Positions 17,241 to 60,428 of a DNA stretch of 64,000 nt are shown here, piece by piece. The notes beneath the pieces were generated by a model. That model saw only the letters and a list, made by a program, of their open reading frames with translations. It ran no database searches and was not told the DNA's origin. The position numbers were made by a program, and so were the translations under genes. Numbering within the stretch: position 1 is the stretch's first letter; each line of letters opens with the position of its first letter. The DNA is from a virus (lineage: Duplodnaviria > Caudoviricetes): IMG/VR virus record IMGVR_UViG_3300037295_000263, positions 128,001 to 192,000 of that record. The stretch is one strand, 5' to 3'.

Positions 17241-17340
17241 TATGGCTGGTAGGACTCGAACCTACAAAGCGGTATCTATGATGTTGCTATTCCCTTTAAA
17301 CTAAGTTTATCGGAGGTCTGCCAATTCCTCTCACAGCCAT
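17241..17340 (-). ncRNA. tRNA-like RNA (Leu-type D and T arms) lacking a normal anticodon loop
   Basis: Acceptor ATGGCTG/CAGCCAT, D arm AGG-AATTGGCAGA-CCT, T arm GTAGG-TTCGAGT-CCTAC; no CCA. Confidence 0.6.
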
Positions 17341-17346
17341 GTCACT

Positions 17347-47091: not shown

Positions 47092-47703
47092 TTAATCGGC
47101 ACAGTTGTTTAAATTTTTTGTGTTTTTAAACCCTGCAACGCCGCCTTGATCGATGATTTTTTGTACTACTTCCTCTAAGAGAATAGGAGCAAACCCAATA
47201 TGTTCTACACATGCACACCAATATCTGGGATCAATTTCTGTCGAATACTGTATTTCTCCAGTAAGTGCGTCTATACCGGATGGCTTGCATACGCGATTAG
47301 AGTGAAGATGGCCATGTATGTTACAGCCGAATCTTCCAAGACTATCTTCGTGTACCGGAATATGACTTAAAATCATACCGTTTATAACATGGTATGCACG
47401 AAGTTCTCTAAAATATTTTCTGTAGTCAGTATCTTGAAAAATATCATGGTTTCCGCGAATTAGTACTTTGTCACCATTAAGTCTAGCTATAGTAGGCAAA
47501 GCTTTGCGGTTAATCACTACATCACCTAAGTGATAAACTTTATCGGAAGGTTTGACTCTCTGATTCCACAATTCTACCATGGCTTCATCCATCTCGTCAG
47601 CATTATCCCAGGGACGGAGTTTAGTTATACCGTCATTCCTTGTAAATTGGCAAACGCCTGTATGTCCAAAGTGTGTATCGCTAACTAACCATACTGATGG
47701 CAT
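47092..47703 (-). CDS. Calcineurin-like metallophosphoesterase
   Basis: SDTHFGH, HLGD, GNHD, HGHLH. Confidence 0.9.
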   Translation of the reverse strand: MPSVWLVSDTHFGHTGVCQFTRNDGITKLRPWDNADEMDEAMVELWNQRVKPSDKVYHLGDVVINRKALPTIARLNGDKVLIRGNHDIFQDTDYRKYFRELRAYHVINGMILSHIPVHEDSLGRFGCNIHGHLHSNRVCKPSGIDALTGEIQYSTEIDPRYWCACVEHIGFAPILLEEVVQKIIDQGGVAGFKNTKNLNNCAD

Positions 47704-48258: not shown

Positions 48259-48480
48259 TTACCAGTTTTCTGAGCCTGAAACTTCTACTTCAAAGTTCCC
48301 AATAATCCCGTTGACTTCTGTTTGAAGTCGCATAATAACTGTTGATCCGATGCCGCTACTTGAATCTTGTATTAATTCTACTGAGGTACTTTCTGGAAAT
48401 TGTTTTAATACTTTCATAATTTTTTCTATTTCATGTATATTTAATTTCACTTTATTCACCTGTTTGTTGTCTGCGTTCAC
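48259..48480 (-). CDS. Hypothetical protein
   Basis: 73 aa, packed. Confidence 0.65.
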   Translation of the reverse strand: MNADNKQVNKVKLNIHEIEKIMKVLKQFPESTSVELIQDSSSGIGSTVIMRLQTEVNGIIGNFEVEVSGSENW

Positions 48481-49009
48481 GTCTGGCTGCTGCTAAAGCA
48501 AATACTTTTTCATTGTTAGTTTCCCACTCTATTTGTTGAGCTGGTACAGTAACGCCACTAGCAGTTTCATACCCATTAAATGAATGTTGTTCTTGTTCAT
48601 CATACAACCATCCTAGTTCCTTCATCATCAGGTGTTTGACCATTAAATTGGGACTGCGAAATATGCCTGTGTCCTCAAAGCCCAACATAACTCCAACTTC
48701 GCATACAGCACCTGATCTACAAATACCTGCATGGCAATGGACAATGACGTTTTTACCATCACGTAGTGCATATTGTAAAACGGTGACTAAATTTTTAGCA
48801 TCCTTTTCTTTGACTTTATCAGATTCCGGATTAGGATCTTTAACTTCAGCATCTAGGAATTTGAATTGATAAATTTGCTCAAATTGATGCGTGGGTATTG
48901 GGAATTCAGTATCGGGATCAACAATTTGAATTAGTATTGAATTGACACCTGGATCAACGTGAGTTCCATTCTTTACTGCTGACAACGAAACGTTTTGTAT
49001 AAATGGCAT
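48452..49009 (-). CDS. Cys-based (PTP/dual-specificity) phosphatase-like protein
   Basis: VIVHCHAGICRSGA (HCxxGxxRS). Confidence 0.85.
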   Translation of the reverse strand: MPFIQNVSLSAVKNGTHVDPGVNSILIQIVDPDTEFPIPTHQFEQIYQFKFLDAEVKDPNPESDKVKEKDAKNLVTVLQYALRDGKNVIVHCHAGICRSGAVCEVGVMLGFEDTGIFRSPNLMVKHLMMKELGWLYDEQEQHSFNGYETASGVTVPAQQIEWETNNEKVFALAAARRERRQQTGE

Positions 49010-54696: not shown

Positions 54697-54885
54697 TTAA
54701 ATATTATTATCGAGAGTACTGTCTGCCCGTTTAAGCCCTGATAAACTGCAGGCTCCTCAGTAGCTGTGCGGCCCACCACAGGCCATCTCCAAATTGAAGA
54801 CATAGGTACAAGGATCGTATTCGCTTTAGACAGTTAAGCTGTTGGTTAAACACTTTACTCCCGGACTCTCGATAATAATATTTAA
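54697..54885 (-). ncRNA. Candidate structured RNA closed by a perfect 21-bp inverted repeat
   Basis: ttaaatattattatcgagagt / actctcgataataatatttaa; several internal hairpins. Confidence 0.55.
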
Positions 54886-54917
54886 CACTGTTTACTTAGA
54901 TTCTAAGTAAACAGTGT
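54885..54917. repeat. 16-bp perfect inverted repeat with 1-nt spacer
   Basis: acactgtttacttaga-t-tctaagtaaacagtgt. Confidence 0.9.
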
Positions 54918-55039
54918 CTGCACTAACGTTACGACGTCGGCAATATTTCTCGAACTTGATATCCATATTTTTTAATAACGTGGTTAGGTTGTTGTGACGC
55001 TTTCATTATAATATTATCGTTAGTTAATGTTATGCTGTA

Positions 55040-55068
55040 ATTATACACAAGATACTACACAGTGTCAA
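55040..55068 (-). promoter_or_regulatory. Consensus sigma70 promoter TTGACA-17-TATAAT
   Basis: Read directly. Confidence 0.85.
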
Positions 55069-55080
55069 CTGTTTAAAAAT

Positions 55081-55171
55081 CGGCGGAAGGCTAGAGAGTC
55101 GAACTCTAAAGGCGCTATTAACACTCGGCTGTTTTCAAGACAGATCCCATCACCAGTTGGGTTGGCCTTCC
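55081..55171 (-). tRNA. tRNA-Ser(TGA)
   Basis: Acceptor GGAAGGC/GCCTTCC, loop CTTGAAA, long V arm, TTCGA; ends CCG rather than CCA. Confidence 0.85.
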
Positions 55172-55178
55172 TTTACTT

Positions 55179-55254
55179 TGGAGTACATGACAGGAATCGA
55201 ACCTGCATACACAGGATTTGCAATCCTGTCCCTAGCCTTTCGGGTCACATGTAC
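55179..55254 (-). tRNA. tRNA-Cys(GCA)
   Basis: Full cloverleaf, CAGGA-TTGCAAA-TCCTG, CCA. Confidence 0.93.
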
Positions 55255-55261
55255 ATTGTTT

Positions 55262-55337
55262 TGGCATCCCCGGAAGGCCTCGAACCTTCAACCTCTGGTT
55301 TTGGAGACCAGCACTCTGCCAATTGAGCTACGGAGAT
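55262..55337 (-). tRNA. tRNA-Trp(CCA)
   Basis: CTGGT-CTCCAAA-ACCAG, CCA end. Confidence 0.93.
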
Positions 55338-55343
55338 ATTGAT

Positions 55344-55400
55344 TGGTACAGCGTACGGAATTCGAACTCTCAAATACACCTTGGCAAGGTGTCAGGCGTG
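55344..55400 (-). pseudogene. Degenerate tRNA-Gly(GCC) remnant
   Basis: Perfect anticodon arm ACACC-TTGCCAA-GGTGT, TTCGAAT and CCA; T stem broken and 5' half missing. Confidence 0.6.
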
Positions 55401-55446
55401 ATAACGATTGTGGGTTTAGTATAGCTGTTCATGATATTTCCTGTAG

Positions 55447-55547
55447 GTTATATTAAAGCACACAGTGTTTTGAGGTATTTAAACTATGCCATTGGGGTTA
55501 CCAAATTCACGAGATTCCCGTCTCGATCCTATGTGCTTTAATATAAC
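55447..55547 (-). ncRNA. Inverted-repeat-bounded element A (16-bp perfect stem)
   Basis: gttatattaaagcaca / tgtgctttaatataac; begins just after promoter 55552-55580. Confidence 0.5.
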
Positions 55548-55551
55548 AATA

Positions 55552-55580
55552 ATTGTACTAGGTTAACGTTGACTTGTCAA
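55552..55580 (-). promoter_or_regulatory. Sigma70 promoter TTGACA-17-TACAAT
   Basis: Read directly. Confidence 0.8.
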
Positions 55581-55588
55581 CTATGTTG

Positions 55589-55664
55589 TGGTATCTCCAA
55601 CCGGATTTGAACCGGTGTGGTTCCCGTGAAAGGGGAAAATCCTAGGCCGCTAGATGATGGAGAT
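55589..55664 (-). tRNA. tRNA-Glu(TTC)
   Basis: TTCCC-CTTTCAC-GGGAA, CCA end. Confidence 0.93.
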
Positions 55665-55762
55665 AATTGTTGGCTCCAAATATTAGCTTGGAACCTAGTA
55701 GACATAAATTATGAAAATTAAAACAACTAGTTAATGAGTACGATAAGAAATAATACACTCTG

Positions 55763-55843
55763 CTCCGCCTCGAGGATTCGAACCTCGCCCTTTCGGATCT
55801 CCGGTTAACAGCCGGGTGCCTTCGCCTAGCCAGCCCAAGCGGA
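55763..55843 (-). tRNA. Atypical tRNA-Asn(GTT) with extended variable arm
   Basis: Loop CTGTTAA, T arm CGAGG-TTCGAAT-CCTCG, V region GATCCGAAAGGG, no CCA. Confidence 0.75.
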
Positions 55844-55939
55844 GCACAGTATACTGCATCGAAATAAACTTTACTTCTATTAATTATCTTGTTAAACAAG
55901 ATAAAACTAATTCTTACGGTTTTACACAAGACAGGATAA

Positions 55940-56158
55940 CCGAAAACTTGTCATATTTCCTTACGGACTTGTTTCTATTTAATTCCATTAATTATGTTGT
56001 TTCGTTATGGAACAGGCCCAACCCCGTTCATTTGCTTTTAACAAACTATGCTTACATACAGGATGATCAATCCAATCTCGTCATAGTTTAACTCGTGTAC
56101 CTTGATAGTCGACATCCAGTACAGTGAGAGTGCATTATGATATACGCCCAATTTTCCA
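55940..56158 (-). ncRNA. Candidate structured RNA of about 220 nt
   Basis: Helices AAACTATG/CATAGTTT, GGAT/ATCC, TTCCAT/ATGGAA, TGTAC/GTACA and a TCC-GTAA-GGA GNRA hairpin. Confidence 0.45.
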
Positions 56159-56234
56159 AAACAACATAATTAATGCAATTTATCTTTAGATGAATTAAAA
56201 AATAAAATTAAAATCTGGAATCAAAAGTACATCG

Positions 56235-56307
56235 AGCGGCGTATCGGGCTTGAACCGATGACCTCTAACTTGGAAGGATAGCGTTCTACCAACTGAACTA
56301 ACGCCGC
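56235..56307 (-). tRNA. tRNA-Gly(TCC)
   Basis: GCGGCGT/ACGCCGC, loop CTTCCAA; no CCA; flanks pair for 10 further bp. Confidence 0.9.
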
Positions 56308-56361
56308 TCGATGTACTCTGTTACCATTAAACTAATCCCGCATATTAATTACTATACACTA

Positions 56362-56390
56362 ATTATAAACTACTTGTTACTGTTTGTCAA
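56362..56390 (-). promoter_or_regulatory. Consensus sigma70 promoter TTGACA-17-TATAAT
   Basis: Read directly. Confidence 0.85.
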
Positions 56391-56424
56391 CCTATTTACT
56401 ACATAAAGATTATTTAAAATGGTA

Positions 56425-56574
56425 TCTTGTTCCCGTCCTTCGGGCCAATGTGTTGGGCTTTATTGCTCTCTACCTATTCAGCCATTCCCACCGTCGAGAG
56501 TCAGTGGGAAACATCTTAACACACCATCTGATAAAATACTAGCACTTGTAAACAAGCTCTTATCAGCAGTCAGT
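56425..56574 (-). ncRNA. Candidate kissing-loop structured RNA of about 150 nt
   Basis: CTGATAA/TTATCAG, TTCCCAC/GTGGGAA and GGCT/AGCC stems; loop CTCTC complementary to loop GAGAG. Confidence 0.55.
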
Positions 56575-56663
56575 TACCATAGTAAAACATATTGTGTGCT
56601 TGCGCCCTTACTTCCAGTTCTCTGAGTTGAGTTCTTTACGTCACAATATGTTTTACTATGGTA
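56575..56663 (-). ncRNA. Inverted-repeat-bounded element E (22-bp perfect stem)
   Basis: taccatagtaaaacatattgtg / cacaatatgttttactatggta, 45-nt interior. Confidence 0.5.
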
Positions 56664-56665
56664 TA

Positions 56666-56761
56666 TAAGTAGTGTGGGATTCGAACCCACGGACATAATA
56701 AACATGTATCAGCGAATTGACATTGTCAAAAGGCCGTCTTAATCCACTCGACCAACTACTC
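56666..56761 (-). ncRNA. Class II-type tRNA-like RNA without a canonical anticodon loop
   Basis: Acceptor GAGTAGT/ACTACTT, D arm GTC-GAGTGGATTAA-GAC, T arm GTGGG-TTCGAAT-CCCAC. Confidence 0.6.
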
Positions 56762-56766
56762 ATGTA

Positions 56767-56842
56767 CCATATTGAAACACACTACTTACGTCTTCGTGTA
56801 GAACCAAATAACACGATATTTGGCTAATGTGTTCTAATATGG
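56767..56842 (-). ncRNA. Inverted-repeat-bounded element B (76 nt) with internal pseudoknot
   Basis: 15-bp closing stem; CCAAATA/TATTTGG stem whose loop TCGTGT pairs with downstream ACACGA. Confidence 0.5.
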
Positions 56843-56858
56843 CGTGTACCATATACTA

Positions 56859-56887
56859 ATTATAAACTACTTTTTATATCTTGTCAA
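56859..56887 (-). promoter_or_regulatory. Consensus sigma70 promoter TTGACA-17-TATAAT
   Basis: Read directly; sits just upstream of element B. Confidence 0.85.
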
Positions 56888-56904
56888 CTATAATTTAATG
56901 CATT

Positions 56905-56996
56905 TGGCGGAACGGGTGAGATTCGAACTCACGGTACGTAATAAAACGTACGACAGGTTAGCAACCTGCTGCCTTAGGCCACTCAGCCACCGTTCC
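56905..56996 (-). tRNA. tRNA-Ser(GCT)
   Basis: GCAGG-TTGCTAA-CCTGT, long V arm, GCCA end. Confidence 0.95.
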
Positions 56997-57006
56997 GTAA
57001 AATATA

Positions 57007-57035
57007 ATTATACTGTATATTTTATACAATGTCAA
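57007..57035 (-). promoter_or_regulatory. Consensus sigma70 promoter TTGACA-17-TATAAT
   Basis: Read directly. Confidence 0.85.
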
Positions 57036-57183
57036 ATTTTATAATTGACACATGCTTATTTCCGTACAAAGCTTTTGCATGTTTGATAGCTTCTTTACGA
57101 TCTGCCACATGTACAATTCTACGATCTAATGCTTGTCCCATAGGAGAAATTACGTATTTGTAAAGTTGCTTTGATTCGTTCAT
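57022..57183 (-). CDS. Small hypothetical protein MNESKQLYKYVISPMGQ... (53 aa)
   Basis: AAGGA RBS and dedicated promoter; not in the ORF track. Confidence 0.65.
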   Translation of the reverse strand: MNESKQLYKYVISPMGQALDRRIVHVADRKEAIKHAKALYGNKHVSIIKFDIV

Positions 57184-57207
57184 AGTGTTTCCTTGTAAAA
57201 TAGAATT

Positions 57208-57236
57208 ATTATAAACTATTTGTTGCCGTTTGTCAA
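57208..57236 (-). promoter_or_regulatory. Consensus sigma70 promoter TTGACA-17-TATAAT
   Basis: Read directly. Confidence 0.85.
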
Positions 57237-57241
57237 ATTGT

Positions 57242-57314
57242 TTTTAATATAGCAGTCGCTACTGGGCATTGTAACTCCGCCCATATTACAGTTAGTTGGA
57301 CTGCTATATTAAAA
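57242..57314 (-). ncRNA. Inverted-repeat-bounded element C (73 nt) with internal pseudoknot
   Basis: 16-bp perfect stem; TGTAAT/GTTACA crossed by TGGGC/GCCCA. Confidence 0.55.
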
Positions 57315-57320
57315 CAAACT

Positions 57321-57396
57321 TGGTGCCGCCACGAGGATTCGAACCCCGGACATCTTCATTACAAGTGAAACACTCTACCAACTGAGCTATGGCGGC
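57321..57396 (-). tRNA. tRNA-Thr(TGT)
   Basis: Full cloverleaf, CTTGTAA loop, ACCA end. Confidence 0.95.
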
Positions 57397-57424
57397 AATA
57401 CTGTACAATTTTTACTACACTGTT

Positions 57425-57453
57425 ATTGTAACACTAAAAACTTTACGTGTCAA
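57425..57453 (-). promoter_or_regulatory. Sigma70 promoter TTGACA-17-TACAAT
   Basis: Read directly. Confidence 0.8.
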
Positions 57454-57462
57454 CTACTTGTT

Positions 57463-57536
57463 TGGTGGAGAATAAGAGAATCGAACTCTTAATTTCGGCA
57501 TGCAAAGCCAACGTTATCCCATTTAACTAATTCCCC
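57463..57536 (-). tRNA. tRNA-Ala(TGC)
   Basis: GGGGAAT/ATTCTCC with G3:U70, loop TTTGCAT, ACCA end. Confidence 0.92.
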
Positions 57537-57541
57537 ATAAC

Positions 57542-57621
57542 TGGTCTCTTGTGTAGGATTCCAACCTACGTTATTCTTGGTCCCAAACCAAGTGCCATTG
57601 AGCAGACTAGGCGAACAAGAG
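57542..57621 (-). tRNA. tRNA-Pro(TGG), atypical D and T loops
   Basis: CTTGG-TTTGGGA-CCAAG, ACCA end; T loop TTGGAAT; D loop lacks GG. Confidence 0.8.
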
Positions 57622-57627
57622 TAAAAC

Positions 57628-57702
57628 TGGCGACTCGTGCCGGAATCGAACCGGCGTAATAGGATAGACAATCCCACGTAATAACCTCTATACGAACGAG
57701 CC
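57628..57702 (-). tRNA. tRNA-Asp(GTC)
   Basis: TGGGA-TTGTCTA-TCCTA, GCCA end. Confidence 0.92.
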
Positions 57703-57711
57703 TTAAATTGT

Positions 57712-57794
57712 TGGTGGAGTATACTGGAATTGAACCAGTCGTGCCTAAGGCAGCGGAAGGCCTTCCACTGCATCACCATTGATGCTTCTACTCC
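57712..57794 (-). ncRNA. Tyr-type tRNA body with the anticodon loop replaced by 6-nt AGGCCT
   Basis: D arm GCATC/GATGC, stem GTGGA/TCCGC, V arm GCC-TTA-GGC, T arm ACTGG/CCAGT, ACCA end. Confidence 0.65.
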
Positions 57795-57847
57795 GTAATT
57801 TTAACACACTCTTTAGAATGTGTGTACTAAAGCAGACTAAAATGAGT

Positions 57848-58297
57848 TTATTTTAAAGGAAAGTAATCTTGGTTTGAAAATTTACTAACTAAGCTAGTTT
57901 GTCGATTTTGTCGAGCAGGTTGTCCAGTTCCACTCTCGTCGTGGGTAAAAACACCATAAAGTCTAATTATATGCGGATTGTTACCTGATATAGAATAAAA
58001 TATACTAATATCGACAGTAAGTTTCGAATGCCGTATATTAGACCATATATTTTTGTTTTTAAACCCTTCGTCTTTTCCGTAAGGACTAGTTGGATTTTGT
58101 GATTTAAATATTAGAAATTGTTCCAAGTTATTTTTAACTTGTACATTATCTCTTTTGTCTAACAATGATTTCTTGTACAGTTCACTAATTTCGAATACAA
58201 CTTCAGGTGCTGGATTAGCTACAGGCAAAGGAATCGATGGTGTTTTCTTCTTTGACGCTTCGTTAATGATATCGATATATTTACGCAAAATGCTCAT
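57848..58297 (-). CDS. Putative RelE/YafQ-fold endoribonuclease
   Basis: HSKLTVDISIFY...IRLYGVFTHDE resembles the YafQ C-terminal H...LLIY...L...GSH pattern. Confidence 0.5.
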   Translation of the reverse strand: MSILRKYIDIINEASKKKTPSIPLPVANPAPEVVFEISELYKKSLLDKRDNVQVKNNLEQFLIFKSQNPTSPYGKDEGFKNKNIWSNIRHSKLTVDISIFYSISGNNPHIIRLYGVFTHDESGTGQPARQNRQTSLVSKFSNQDYFPLK

Positions 58298-58473
58298 TTT
58301 AATAAAGATTCGTTTAATGATAGAAGCTGCGATAGAGATAAGATTTCTGTCTTGGCATTGCGCGATTCTAAAATAATATTGCTCAGATCTTCCGTTGAAA
58401 AATTTGTATTATTTTCCAAGTTAGTTTGTTCACAAATTATTTTGATTTCTTTAGGTAACAAGTTAGTAGTCAT
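58294..58473 (-). CDS. Small hypothetical protein, possible antitoxin
   Basis: ATGA overlap with the RelE-like gene; start moved to ATG 58473. Confidence 0.5.
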   Translation of the reverse strand: MTTNLLPKEIKIICEQTNLENNTNFSTEDLSNIILESRNAKTEILSLSQLLSLNESLLK

Positions 58474-58675
58474 AATATTATTTATCCTGTAAGTTGCTAT
58501 ATTAGTCAACATTATAACAAACTTTATCAAGTATGTCAAGTAGCAATAATCTGCTTTAATACGCTGTAGTTTTTCACACCACAAAAGGTGTTTTCATCGT
58601 ACAGGCCGCCCATTTAAAACTTTTATAGTGGTTTAAGGATCTCGTTTCCTATATCACTTTAGTGCTGCGCTAATG

Positions 58676-58709
58676 AAAAACTCCAGGGTTTTTATTCCTG
58701 GAGTCTTTT
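58676..58709 (-). terminator. Intrinsic terminator-like hairpin
   Basis: ACTCCAGG/CCTGGAGT stem followed by a T run on both strands. Confidence 0.7.
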
Positions 58710-58713
58710 AAAG

Positions 58714-58867
58714 TTACAGTATTTTGTATTTCTACACAACACCTACCTCTCCAGACTCCGTCTTAATCCCCTCTGGTGTACAATCATTACTATTAAATTC
58801 GCATACCTGCCAAGGGGTGGACATTGTGCCCGCCGGATTAGCGTTAACATGCGATTGATAACTGTAA
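58714..58867 (-). ncRNA. Candidate kissing-loop structured RNA of about 155 nt with its own promoter and terminator
   Basis: TTACAGT/ACTGTAA closing stem; TCGCAT/ATGCGA and CCAGA/TCTGG arms with complementary loops. Confidence 0.6.
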
Positions 58868-58907
58868 TTCTGTACTAACATAAGTTTTTCCTTTTATTCT
58901 ATAACTA

Positions 58908-58936
58908 ATTTTACTATCTTTTATTTATGCTGTCAA
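58908..58936 (-). promoter_or_regulatory. Sigma70 promoter TTGACA-17-TAAAAT with embedded TAAATA
   Basis: Read directly. Confidence 0.75.
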
Positions 58937-58980
58937 TCATTTTATTACTTTAATAGAGAATTCGTTCCACTGTCCGTACA

Positions 58981-59046
58981 TTAGTGGTTCGATTTTGATT
59001 TTGACCATTCCCAACCGGATGTGTGCTGAGTTGTTTCTGATTTCAT
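58981..59046 (-). CDS. 21-aa peptide MKSETTQHTSGWEWSKSKSNH, candidate darobactin-like RiPP precursor
   Basis: AAGGA 5 nt before ATG; starts 26 nt after the radical SAM stop codon; WxWSKS motif. Confidence 0.55.
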   Translation of the reverse strand: MKSETTQHTSGWEWSKSKSNH

Positions 59047-59072
59047 ACCAGTCCTTTTTATGCATTATAATA

Positions 59073-60428
59073 TCATAATACTACACTGGAACAATGTTTT
59101 TGAATTAATTCTTTGACATCTCTTAATGTTGTACGCCAGTTAGTGCCTCGGCGAATGTCGAGGATGTCCATAACTCTAACAAATTCTTGGATTGCTGCTT
59201 GATTTTCAAAATCAATATAAGAATTTAACAAATTGATCTGAGACCGTATCCATCGTTCTCTTGTAGGTGTATTTTCAATCTTTTGCAATCTGTCTATTAT
59301 TTCTAATTTTGCAGATTTAGGCAAGTTTCTAATATCGTAACATACTGGACCTTCTATATATCTTATGTTTAAATCTACTTCTAATTCTTCAGATAACGGT
59401 AACAGTCTTTCAAGGGTATAAGGAGTAGCAATGCCGATACAACTTGAAATATAAGTAATTTCTATTCCATTGTTTTTAATTATTTTTAAGTTTTCGATTA
59501 TTCTTTCATACTTTCCAGGAAATCGAATTAAGTTATACCTGTCTTCGGTTTCGTCAAGACTTATACACAAAAATACTTTTTTAAAATGTTTCCATCTGTT
59601 TATTATTTTGTTGTTGATTACACTTAAATTTGTATCGTATCTAAGATATATGTTTTTAGCTGAACCATTTGCTATTAATCTATCCAAACACTCAGCCATT
59701 GCCGGTACGATCAACGGTTCTCCACCAGTAAAATAAATATGTCTCAACTGCGAAGAAATATGTTCAAATTTACTCCACCATACATTAGTTTCCCACCACG
59801 GCACAGTAACATTGCCAGTATTTGATTTCAAGTAAAAAGATTTGTAATTTTCTTTTTTAAAATTACTAGTCATTATATTATTTCTCATAGGCAATCTTCC
59901 TACTGCCTCCCAATCATCATACCATTGATTACTGTGTTCTGGGCTACACATGATACATTTTTGATTGCATAAATTTCCAAATCTAATATCTAAATTTATA
60001 ACTTTTGGATTAGTTATCGATCCGTCGGCGTTCATTACACTTTTAGCAGTGTCTACTGTGATGTATTCAGGTATATTTTTTACAGTTACGTTTAAAACTC
60101 GTTGGCGCTTGCTTATTCCTGTTTTTGCATTTTTGCCCCATGAAATTATTCCCCGAGTACTATCCTCCGAGTCGTAACAACTCCTGCATCGTTTTACTTT
60201 AATATTTTGTGCAAGTTCTAATCTATGACTTTTATGAGTTTCGCTATTAATAGCTTCTTCAAACGAATGCGTCATGATGTTCATAGTTTTTCCATTACTA
60301 TCAACAGCCATCCCAAAGTCTTTATCAAAATTGGCAAGGCAGCAAATTTTAAAATCTCCACTAGGGCTTATTTCCAACTGACTCCATGGTTCCGGGCAAA
60401 AGCTCTCGATGTTAAAATTTGTTGTCAT
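59073..60428 (-). CDS. Radical SAM protein with N-terminal twitch/SPASM-like domain
   Basis: FCPEPW...KICC...CRSC, CNQKCIMC, TGGEP, YDTN. Confidence 0.92.
   Translation of the reverse strand: MTTNFNIESFCPEPWSQLEISPSGDFKICCLANFDKDFGMAVDSNGKTMNIMTHSFEEAINSETHKSHRLELAQNIKVKRCRSCYDSEDSTRGIISWGKNAKTGISKRQRVLNVTVKNIPEYITVDTAKSVMNADGSITNPKVINLDIRFGNLCNQKCIMCSPEHSNQWYDDWEAVGRLPMRNNIMTSNFKKENYKSFYLKSNTGNVTVPWWETNVWWSKFEHISSQLRHIYFTGGEPLIVPAMAECLDRLIANGSAKNIYLRYDTNLSVINNKIINRWKHFKKVFLCISLDETEDRYNLIRFPGKYERIIENLKIIKNNGIEITYISSCIGIATPYTLERLLPLSEELEVDLNIRYIEGPVCYDIRNLPKSAKLEIIDRLQKIENTPTRERWIRSQINLLNSYIDFENQAAIQEFVRVMDILDIRRGTNWRTTLRDVKELIQKHCSSVVL

Follow-up and report, generated by a model that had tools for sequence, protein, structure and literature searches.

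What becomes of a phage tRNA when its anticodon loop is exchanged for a palindrome? This question is raised by an 83-nt gene on the minus strand at 57712-57794 of a 64,000-nt stretch of DNA (hereafter the window), which corresponds to bases 128001-192000 of a linear 216.7-kb IMG/VR virus record. The record has an estimated completeness of 59% and comes from an uncultured freshwater phage. The initial annotation had described a Tyr-type tRNA in which AGGCCT sits between the two strands of the anticodon stem, and this description matches the sequence exactly when the minus strand is read. It had also proposed that the product is a mimic or decoy rather than a decayed tRNA. Here, we find that the gene is the homologue of a decoding tRNA-Tyr, that it occupies a conserved position in a tRNA array, that its anticodon loop is gone and that this change is unique among everything we searched. 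Most likely, it is a gene that was disabled fairly recently and not a proven decoy.

A tRNA gene with a sealed anticodon arm

The acceptor with ACCA and the D, V and T arms, all said to be intact when the locus was first described, are confirmed on the minus strand. The acceptor, GGAGUAG/AUACUCC, has a single G.A mismatch at its inner end and is followed by A73 and an encoded CCA. The D arm (57770-57785, minus strand), which has the same sequence in most members of the family described below, is predicted to form a 6-bp stem with a 4-nt loop. The long variable region (57740-57752, minus strand) contains a 3-bp hairpin, GCC-UUA-GGC, making it class II and of Tyr type, and the T arm (57723-57739, minus strand) reads ACUGG-UUCAAUU-CCAGU. 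Acceptor stem, A73, CCA, long variable arm and the T-loop consensus are all present, and RNAfold predicts a cloverleaf of -32.3 kcal/mol (z = -3.1 relative to shuffled sequences).

The anticodon arm is another matter. Its stem strands, GUGGA/UCCGC, enclose AGGCCU (57763-57758, minus strand), six nucleotides that by alignment to the family take the place of a 7-nt YUGUAAM loop. As had been noticed from the start, the inner stem and the new loop form a perfect palindrome, GGAAGGCCTTCC, which spans 12 nt (57755-57766, no strand) and has one copy in the record. U33, the GUA anticodon and the purine at 37 are all missing. By RNAfold, the arm (57752-57769, minus strand) is predicted to close into a 7-bp helix with a GGCC cap, with the T at 57752 adding a basal A-U pair; folded alone, it reaches -7.0 kcal/mol versus -4.7 kcal/mol for the family arm. 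We refer to the gene as sealed for this reason. Palindromes of 12 nt occur genome-wide at chance frequency (93 observed versus 86 +/- 11 in shuffles), thus it is the location of this one, not its existence, that is non-random.

Several explanations of the new loop were tried and rejected. A repeated motif is out because GGAAGGCCTTCC is single copy, and so is an avoided restriction site, the counts of GGCC and AGGCCT being near expectation. An 8-nt-loop tRNA of the quadruplet-reading kind is out given that U33 and purine 37 are lacking and that the closed helix is the stable fold. A hairpin template-switch "correction" is out as well, judging from the ancestral arm, which contains neither half of the new palindrome.

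The sealed gene is the first gene of a minus-strand tRNA array that runs from about 57794 down to 55082, and tRNA-Asp(GUC) (57628-57702, minus strand) follows 9 nt downstream. ARAGORN calls ten tRNAs in the array and the sealed gene is not among them; two more genes come from Rfam, one of them tRNA-Ser(UGA)-like (55085-55171) and the other an aberrant tRNA-like sequence (56666-56761). At the sealed gene itself, the lone match listed by Rfam is to the tRNA-Sec model RF01852, with 21.9 bits against a cut-off of 47. RF00005 (tRNA; gathering threshold 29 bits) has no match among those listed there, where lower-scoring overlapping matches of the same clan (here RF00005 versus RF01852) are left out. 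A second tRNA-Tyr is absent from the 216.7-kb record, which is an estimated 59% complete.

The parent is a phage-specific tRNA-Tyr

To which tRNA does the sealed gene belong? In IMG/VR, a degenerate pattern built from the candidate and the sequence of a relative (G001), with a free loop of 5-8 nt, matched 69 contigs, and a looser pattern with a free anticodon arm contributed 11 additional loci. Together these scans yielded a family set of 79 full-length tRNA-Tyr genes, representing 40 distinct sequences. The 7-nt loop YTGTAAM, with anticodon GUA, is present in 79/79 loci and 40/40 distinct sequences as well as in Limnohabitans phage DC31 and G001, so that the loop the initial annotation would have expected, CTGTAAA or the like, is what the recovered homologues carry.

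The 5' half of the sealed gene is identical at 31/31 bases to most of the 79 members. Many of the family contigs come from the broad phage group to which this phage belongs, with protein identities of roughly 25-79%. The sole cultured match is the annotated tRNA-Tyr of DC31 (PQ492658.1, 12705-12790), with 79% identity to the sealed gene. G001 was reached through a neighbouring radical-SAM gene (451 aa; about 55% protein identity) and has an array of 21 tRNAs, in which a canonical tRNA-Tyr(gta) with the loop CUGUAAA lies directly upstream of tRNA-Asp(gtc). The same Tyr-Asp order is found on several other family contigs. The 451-aa protein has three relatives at about 55% identity without tRNAs nearby; one of the three is G001, whose array is located elsewhere. 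Thus, the assignment of the locus to the Tyr type is borne out by the identity to DC31, by the 5' half and by the slot upstream of tRNA-Asp.

The family pattern has zero matches in 185,579 species-representative bacterial and archaeal genomes. This type of tRNA-Tyr is therefore phage-specific and not a host copy, and a direct copy of a host tRNA is not supported as the origin of the sealed gene. In fact, the family has features of its own: a conserved acceptor mismatch, G7.A66, and a D arm predicted to have 6 bp in its stem and 4 nt in its loop (L016-L100, 79 IMG/VR loci; L101:1501-1586). Default ARAGORN misses many canonical members, and the type is probably under-annotated in phage genomes. 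Since ARAGORN also skips these canonical genes, its miss of the sealed gene does not come from the loop alone. The sealed gene also brings to light a tRNA-Tyr type that is phage-specific, widespread and often missed by standard gene finders, with conserved features as odd as the acceptor mismatch and the long predicted D stem.

The sealed gene diverges in its loop

Aligned to its nearest family members, the sealed gene differs in 6/7 loop columns (five substitutions and one deletion) and in 3/68 body columns (Fisher p = 2.8e-6). Six of the seven aligned loop columns differ from each of the 40 distinct family sequences, and the body distance falls inside the family's own range of 0-4. This agrees with the earlier view that the remaining cloverleaf is preserved. 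In the T arm, the T at 57728 is present also in one family member. Two of the three body differences are private: a C to T change at 57752, just past the 3' stem strand, where all family members have C, and a G to A change at 57731, in the T loop, where all other members have G. Both are GC-to-AT transitions at positions that are invariant across the 40 family sequences; among these 40, private changes at invariant positions number none in 37, one in 3 and never more. Both changes obey general tRNA rules and leave all stems paired, and a pair between the T at 57752 and the A preceding the stem can make the closed helix one pair longer. From the alignment, two private GC-to-AT changes at invariant sites hint at relaxed constraint.

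Is the loop real? If the loop were an error of assembly or sequencing, or if the consensus had taken up a minority strain variant, the true phage would carry CTGTAAA, and the loop was indeed seen on one contig only. We consider this highly improbable, however, because six of seven positions and the length have changed, unlike known short-read or consensus errors, and because the extra private substitutions nearby suggest a real diverged allele. Both flanks also run on as tRNA halves in the correct orientation, hence a fold-back misassembly is out.

How many such genes are there? A second sealed tRNA-Tyr was found in neither of the two IMG/VR pattern scans, which are able to catch other loop lengths. 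The sealed arm has five matches in metagenome contigs, all of them in unrelated coding sequence. Two exact patterns that included the candidate's own 3' context gave no match, because the family has C where the candidate has T. We also surveyed 83 related array loci (about 780 kb, about 1,300 tRNA-shaped genes) for replaced loops. In this survey, the sealed tRNA-Tyr alone has a replaced loop on an intact body together with a canonical homologue that is nearly identical; point changes, for example U33 to C, account for the remaining near-canonical outliers. The phage itself has been sampled once, since a search of 5.8 billion protein clusters places the 149-aa protein encoded next to the array on one contig only. 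The initial annotation had named a change restricted to this genome as one half of what would speak against a mimic, and comparison with the orthologous tRNA-Tyr of relatives finds the loop change to be unique.

A clustered multi-base change of this kind also fits the repair of a DNA break. In that case the conserved tRNA-Tyr would have been targeted by a host CRISPR spacer or by the homing endonuclease of a rival phage, and the loop would be the product of repair or escape, with the tRNA sacrificed. The extreme conservation of the family would make it a suitable target: most of the 79 contigs agree base for base over the 5' half of the gene, and the proteins of these phages are only about 25-79% identical to those of this one. 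Moreover, the new loop and the 3' stem together read AGGCCTTCCG, a 10-mer that is also found in the T arm of the array tRNA-Trp (55271-55280, minus strand), and GGAAGGCC and GCCTTCCGC are the two ends of the array tRNA-Ser(UGA) (55083-55091 and 55164-55171, minus strand), which makes these tRNAs possible ectopic repair templates. But by chance the genome also contains several unrelated 10- to 11-mer matches to this region, so the donor idea is statistically weak, and we rejected the tRNA-Trp T arm and the tRNA-Ser ends as donors because they do not rise above chance level. Furthermore, one or two substitutions are usually enough for simple escape, and neither an endonuclease gene nor a spacer was identified. 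Escape at the DNA level thus seems very unlikely.

Expression and neighbourhood

Would the sealed gene still be expressed? The nearest upstream promoter of the sigma-70 type (58511-58539, minus strand) is a 12/12 match with TG, assigned by consensus match only. It probably drives a small ORF, a RelE-like gene and the first block of the tRNA array. The sealed gene lies in the same strand block as Asp-Pro-Ala, and no terminator-like site separates it from the promoter at 58539-58511. Because of this arrangement, and because acceptor, T arm and CCA are kept, we infer that transcription of the array probably still includes the sealed gene and that its RNA is probably trimmed as tRNAs are.

Promoter-like sites are dense in this region. 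On the array strand (54800-59200, minus strand), six perfect 12/12 TTGACA-17-TATAAT sites and three 11/12 sites lie within 4.4 kb; promoter-like sites number 35 in all, versus 15.9 +/- 4.1 in shuffles. To judge from these matches, the array seems to be divided among several units, each strongly promoted.

Directly upstream of the array, at 57848-58297 on the minus strand, is the gene for the 149-aa protein, and the small ORF ahead of it extends up to about 58500. The 149-aa protein has no Pfam or PHROG match and no tblastn relatives in IMG/VR; its two distant homologues are on contigs of about 1 kb. For its C-terminal two thirds, a fold like that of RelE/YafQ/YoeB is predicted (pLDDT 64; Foldseek E = 2e-4, target TM 0.63-0.79). 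RelE, YafQ and YoeB are ribosome-dependent mRNA endonuclease toxins.

Genes of an RNA-repair type are found farther away. A T4 Rnl1-type RNA ligase (PF09511, 54.8 bits) is encoded outside the window at G000:C1:196746-197339, and a Metallophos phosphoesterase and a DSP-type phosphatase are encoded in the window at 47092-47703 and 48452-49009. Homologues of all three adjoin tRNA-Tyr in many related contigs, and by this co-occurrence they look like an RNA-repair gene set that travels with tRNA arrays. With such genes near the arrays, cleavage of tRNA by the host is a plausible selective pressure.

Other non-canonical tRNA-like genes

The sealed gene is not the only unusual tRNA-like gene of this phage. 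The aberrant gene at 56666-56761 (minus strand) scores 38 bits with the Rfam tRNA model. Its acceptor, D and T arms are good and its body is class II, with 39 nt that include the near-palindrome UUGACAAUGUCAA in place of the anticodon-arm region. A fuzzy search for homologues of this gene in the 83 related array loci found none. A Leu-like tRNA-shaped sequence at 17241-17345 (minus strand) has a good acceptor and T arm, with a UAAAC-UUA-GUUUA hairpin at the site of the anticodon arm; a pattern scan for sequences of this kind, of low specificity, returned mostly ordinary tRNA-Leu genes. The tRNA-Ser(UGA)-like gene (55082-55171, minus strand), missed by default ARAGORN, scores 47.2 bits with the tRNA-Sec model, just at threshold. 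Yersinia phage vB_YenM_P778 has a stretch with 92% identity to it, annotated there as a hypothetical protein, and G001 has a near-identical gene (L015, 4462-4548).

Related arrays are likewise rich in non-canonical tRNA-like genes (L027, L029, L067/L071, L062, L063, L075, L096, L059, L084 and L015 6673-6750). Some of these are truncated 5' halves of tRNAs, and a remnant has a CCCC-GAAA-GGG hairpin. Two kinds recur, namely a tRNA-like gene of 66 nt and a family with a GGCAGGTTCRATTCCTGT T arm but without an obvious anticodon arm. In two loci (L039 and L072), a second gene directly downstream of tRNA-Tyr combines a Tyr-like D arm with a short variable region and the loop CTCTTAC (register CUU); going by these features, it may be a Tyr-derived tRNA of changed identity. 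Two otherwise canonical tRNAs (L065 10863-10933 and L076 5261-5333, both plus strand) have the anticodon loop CCGATAA, with C33 instead of U. These are single-base loop variants, of the kind discussed as nuclease evasion in phage tRNAs.

A disabled tRNA or a decoy?

We propose that in one lineage AGGCCU overwrote the anticodon loop (CUGUAAA in relatives) of the phage's resident tRNA-Tyr(GUA), the first gene of the array. The resulting RNA would have the shape of a tRNA, with its anticodon arm closed as a 7-bp helix with a GGCC cap. Lacking an anticodon, this RNA cannot read codons; the claim that it is non-decoding was thus well founded, the 6-nt AGGCCU loop leaving no anticodon. Bacterial TyrRS relies on the anticodon bases G34/U35 as identity elements. 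Because these bases are lost, the sealed RNA should be charged poorly by TyrRS, if at all.

What remains is to ask whether such an RNA is a casualty or a tool. We favour a lineage-specific loss-of-function allele (a pseudo-tRNA, and not a brand new one) over an RNA selected for a new job, with a probability of roughly 0.55. The gene has one mark of a tRNA pseudogene, an essential element being lost while relatives have canonical homologues. Loss of function is favoured because the loop change is unique, because the sealed gene replaces the decoding gene instead of being an extra copy, because two private GC-to-AT changes have occurred at invariant sites, because truncated and decayed tRNA remnants lie downstream of tRNA-Tyr in relatives' arrays (L027, L029, L067), and because a phage tRNA-Tyr loses its power to rescue from retron-Eco7 once its anticodon is altered (PMC11555353).

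Several observations sit less easily with plain loss. The body is otherwise intact and the cloverleaf fold is kept. Instead of being a simple point mutation, the lesion exchanges seven nucleotides for six in a complex replacement that stays within the loop, and it results in a perfectly sealed helix that the private T at 57752 extends by one pair. Further tRNA-like genes without a normal anticodon arm are present at 56666-56761, in the same array, and at 17241-17345 (the Leu-like sequence). Finally, an Rnl1-type ligase and phosphatases are encoded near the group's tRNA arrays. The rival reading is a non-decoding look-alike of tRNA-Tyr that is kept by selection, its body retained and its arm closed. 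It could act as a decoy or competitive inhibitor of a host protein that recognises tRNA-Tyr, for example by occupying a tRNA-Tyr-directed defence nuclease while remaining uncut in the loop and outside translation. The replacement of the entire loop on a preserved body with all stems intact, and a predicted arm stabler than that of the family, speak for such a role, as do the other anticodon-less tRNA-like genes of the same genome and the RNA-repair-type genes (Rnl1 ligase, Metallophos and DSP phosphatases) of the phage group.

Nevertheless, we regard a selected look-alike as possible but doubtful. A sealed arm on an otherwise intact tRNA body is there, but conservation across independent lineages is absent: the design occurs in 0/79 homologues, in 0 metagenome contigs and in 1 of about 1,300 array tRNAs. 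The sealed gene also substitutes for a decoding gene and adds nothing beside it, and it has private GC-to-AT changes at family-invariant positions. In addition, the lone tested phage counter-measure that uses tRNA-Tyr requires a working anticodon (PMC11555353). The preference for a mimic over decay expressed in the initial annotation is therefore not upheld, given the uniqueness of the change, the two private changes at invariant sites and this anticodon requirement. The full scenario, in which the phage turned its own conserved tRNA-Tyr into an uncleavable, anticodon-less decoy or inhibitor kept by selection, a mimic born from an identifiable parent, appears unlikely to us.

If the sealed gene is a disabled tRNA-Tyr, the event was an ordinary one. 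It nonetheless provides a clean example, since every base of the parent family is known and the lesion does not reach beyond the loop. If it was selected, it would show how anticodon-less tRNA look-alikes arise from working tRNAs, and it would provide a defined pair of canonical and sealed tRNA-Tyr for decoy tests against tRNA-targeting defences.

Comparison with known systems

The closest known genes are the tRNA-Tyr of DC31 and those of the family. What the sealed gene has in common with them is the G.A mismatch at the inner end of the acceptor, the long predicted D stem, the long variable arm, A73, the encoded CCA and, where the order is conserved, its place upstream of tRNA-Asp. It differs in its 6-nt AGGCCU loop, the family loop being the 7-nt YUGUAAM, and in having two private changes at family-invariant positions. 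The long variable arm and the D arm, whose predicted stem is long and whose loop has 4 nt, also recall tRNA-Sec (RF01852). Unlike tRNA-Sec, the sealed gene has no UCA and scores far below threshold, and its D-arm features are those of the whole Tyr(GUA) family. We thus rejected tRNA-Sec and allo-tRNA, the D-arm shape being common to all canonical Tyr members.

Phage tRNAs with substituted anticodon loops that evade defence are another point of reference, and they probably still decode. In the cited passages, tRNAs with nuclease-resistant anticodon-loop substitutions evade or neutralise host defence (PMC10264068; T5 tRNA-Lys versus PARIS, PMC11464382). As far as these passages describe them, they resemble the sealed gene in having their changes concentrated in the anticodon loop, whereas in the sealed gene the entire loop is both replaced and shortened. 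The tRNA-Tyr of phages T5 and SP15 rescues phages from PtuAB of retron-Eco7 (Ec78) (PMC11555353; PMC12673091), and this rescue is abolished by changing the anticodon or the stem-loops (PMC11555353). As with the sealed gene, the tRNA-Tyr is phage-encoded and lies in a region rich in tRNAs, and there are host defences by which tRNA-Tyr is depleted. The T5/SP15 gene, however, restores decoding, while the sealed RNA is without an anticodon and cannot act that way.

The tRNA clusters of T4 and T5 also encode stable RNAs of unknown function that are tRNA-like and non-decoding. In bacteria, the YrlA Y RNAs contain a tRNA-like domain and are called widespread in the cited part of the source (PMC4201824). 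Like these RNAs, as they are presented there, the sealed RNA is tRNA-shaped with no usable anticodon, and the phage cases are encoded among tRNA genes. They have been reported from more than one genome, in contrast to the sealed gene, which is a single-genome derivative of a canonical tRNA. Disabled or non-decoding tRNA genes in phage arrays are already known as a kind, and the sealed tRNA-Tyr is a fresh instance of it.
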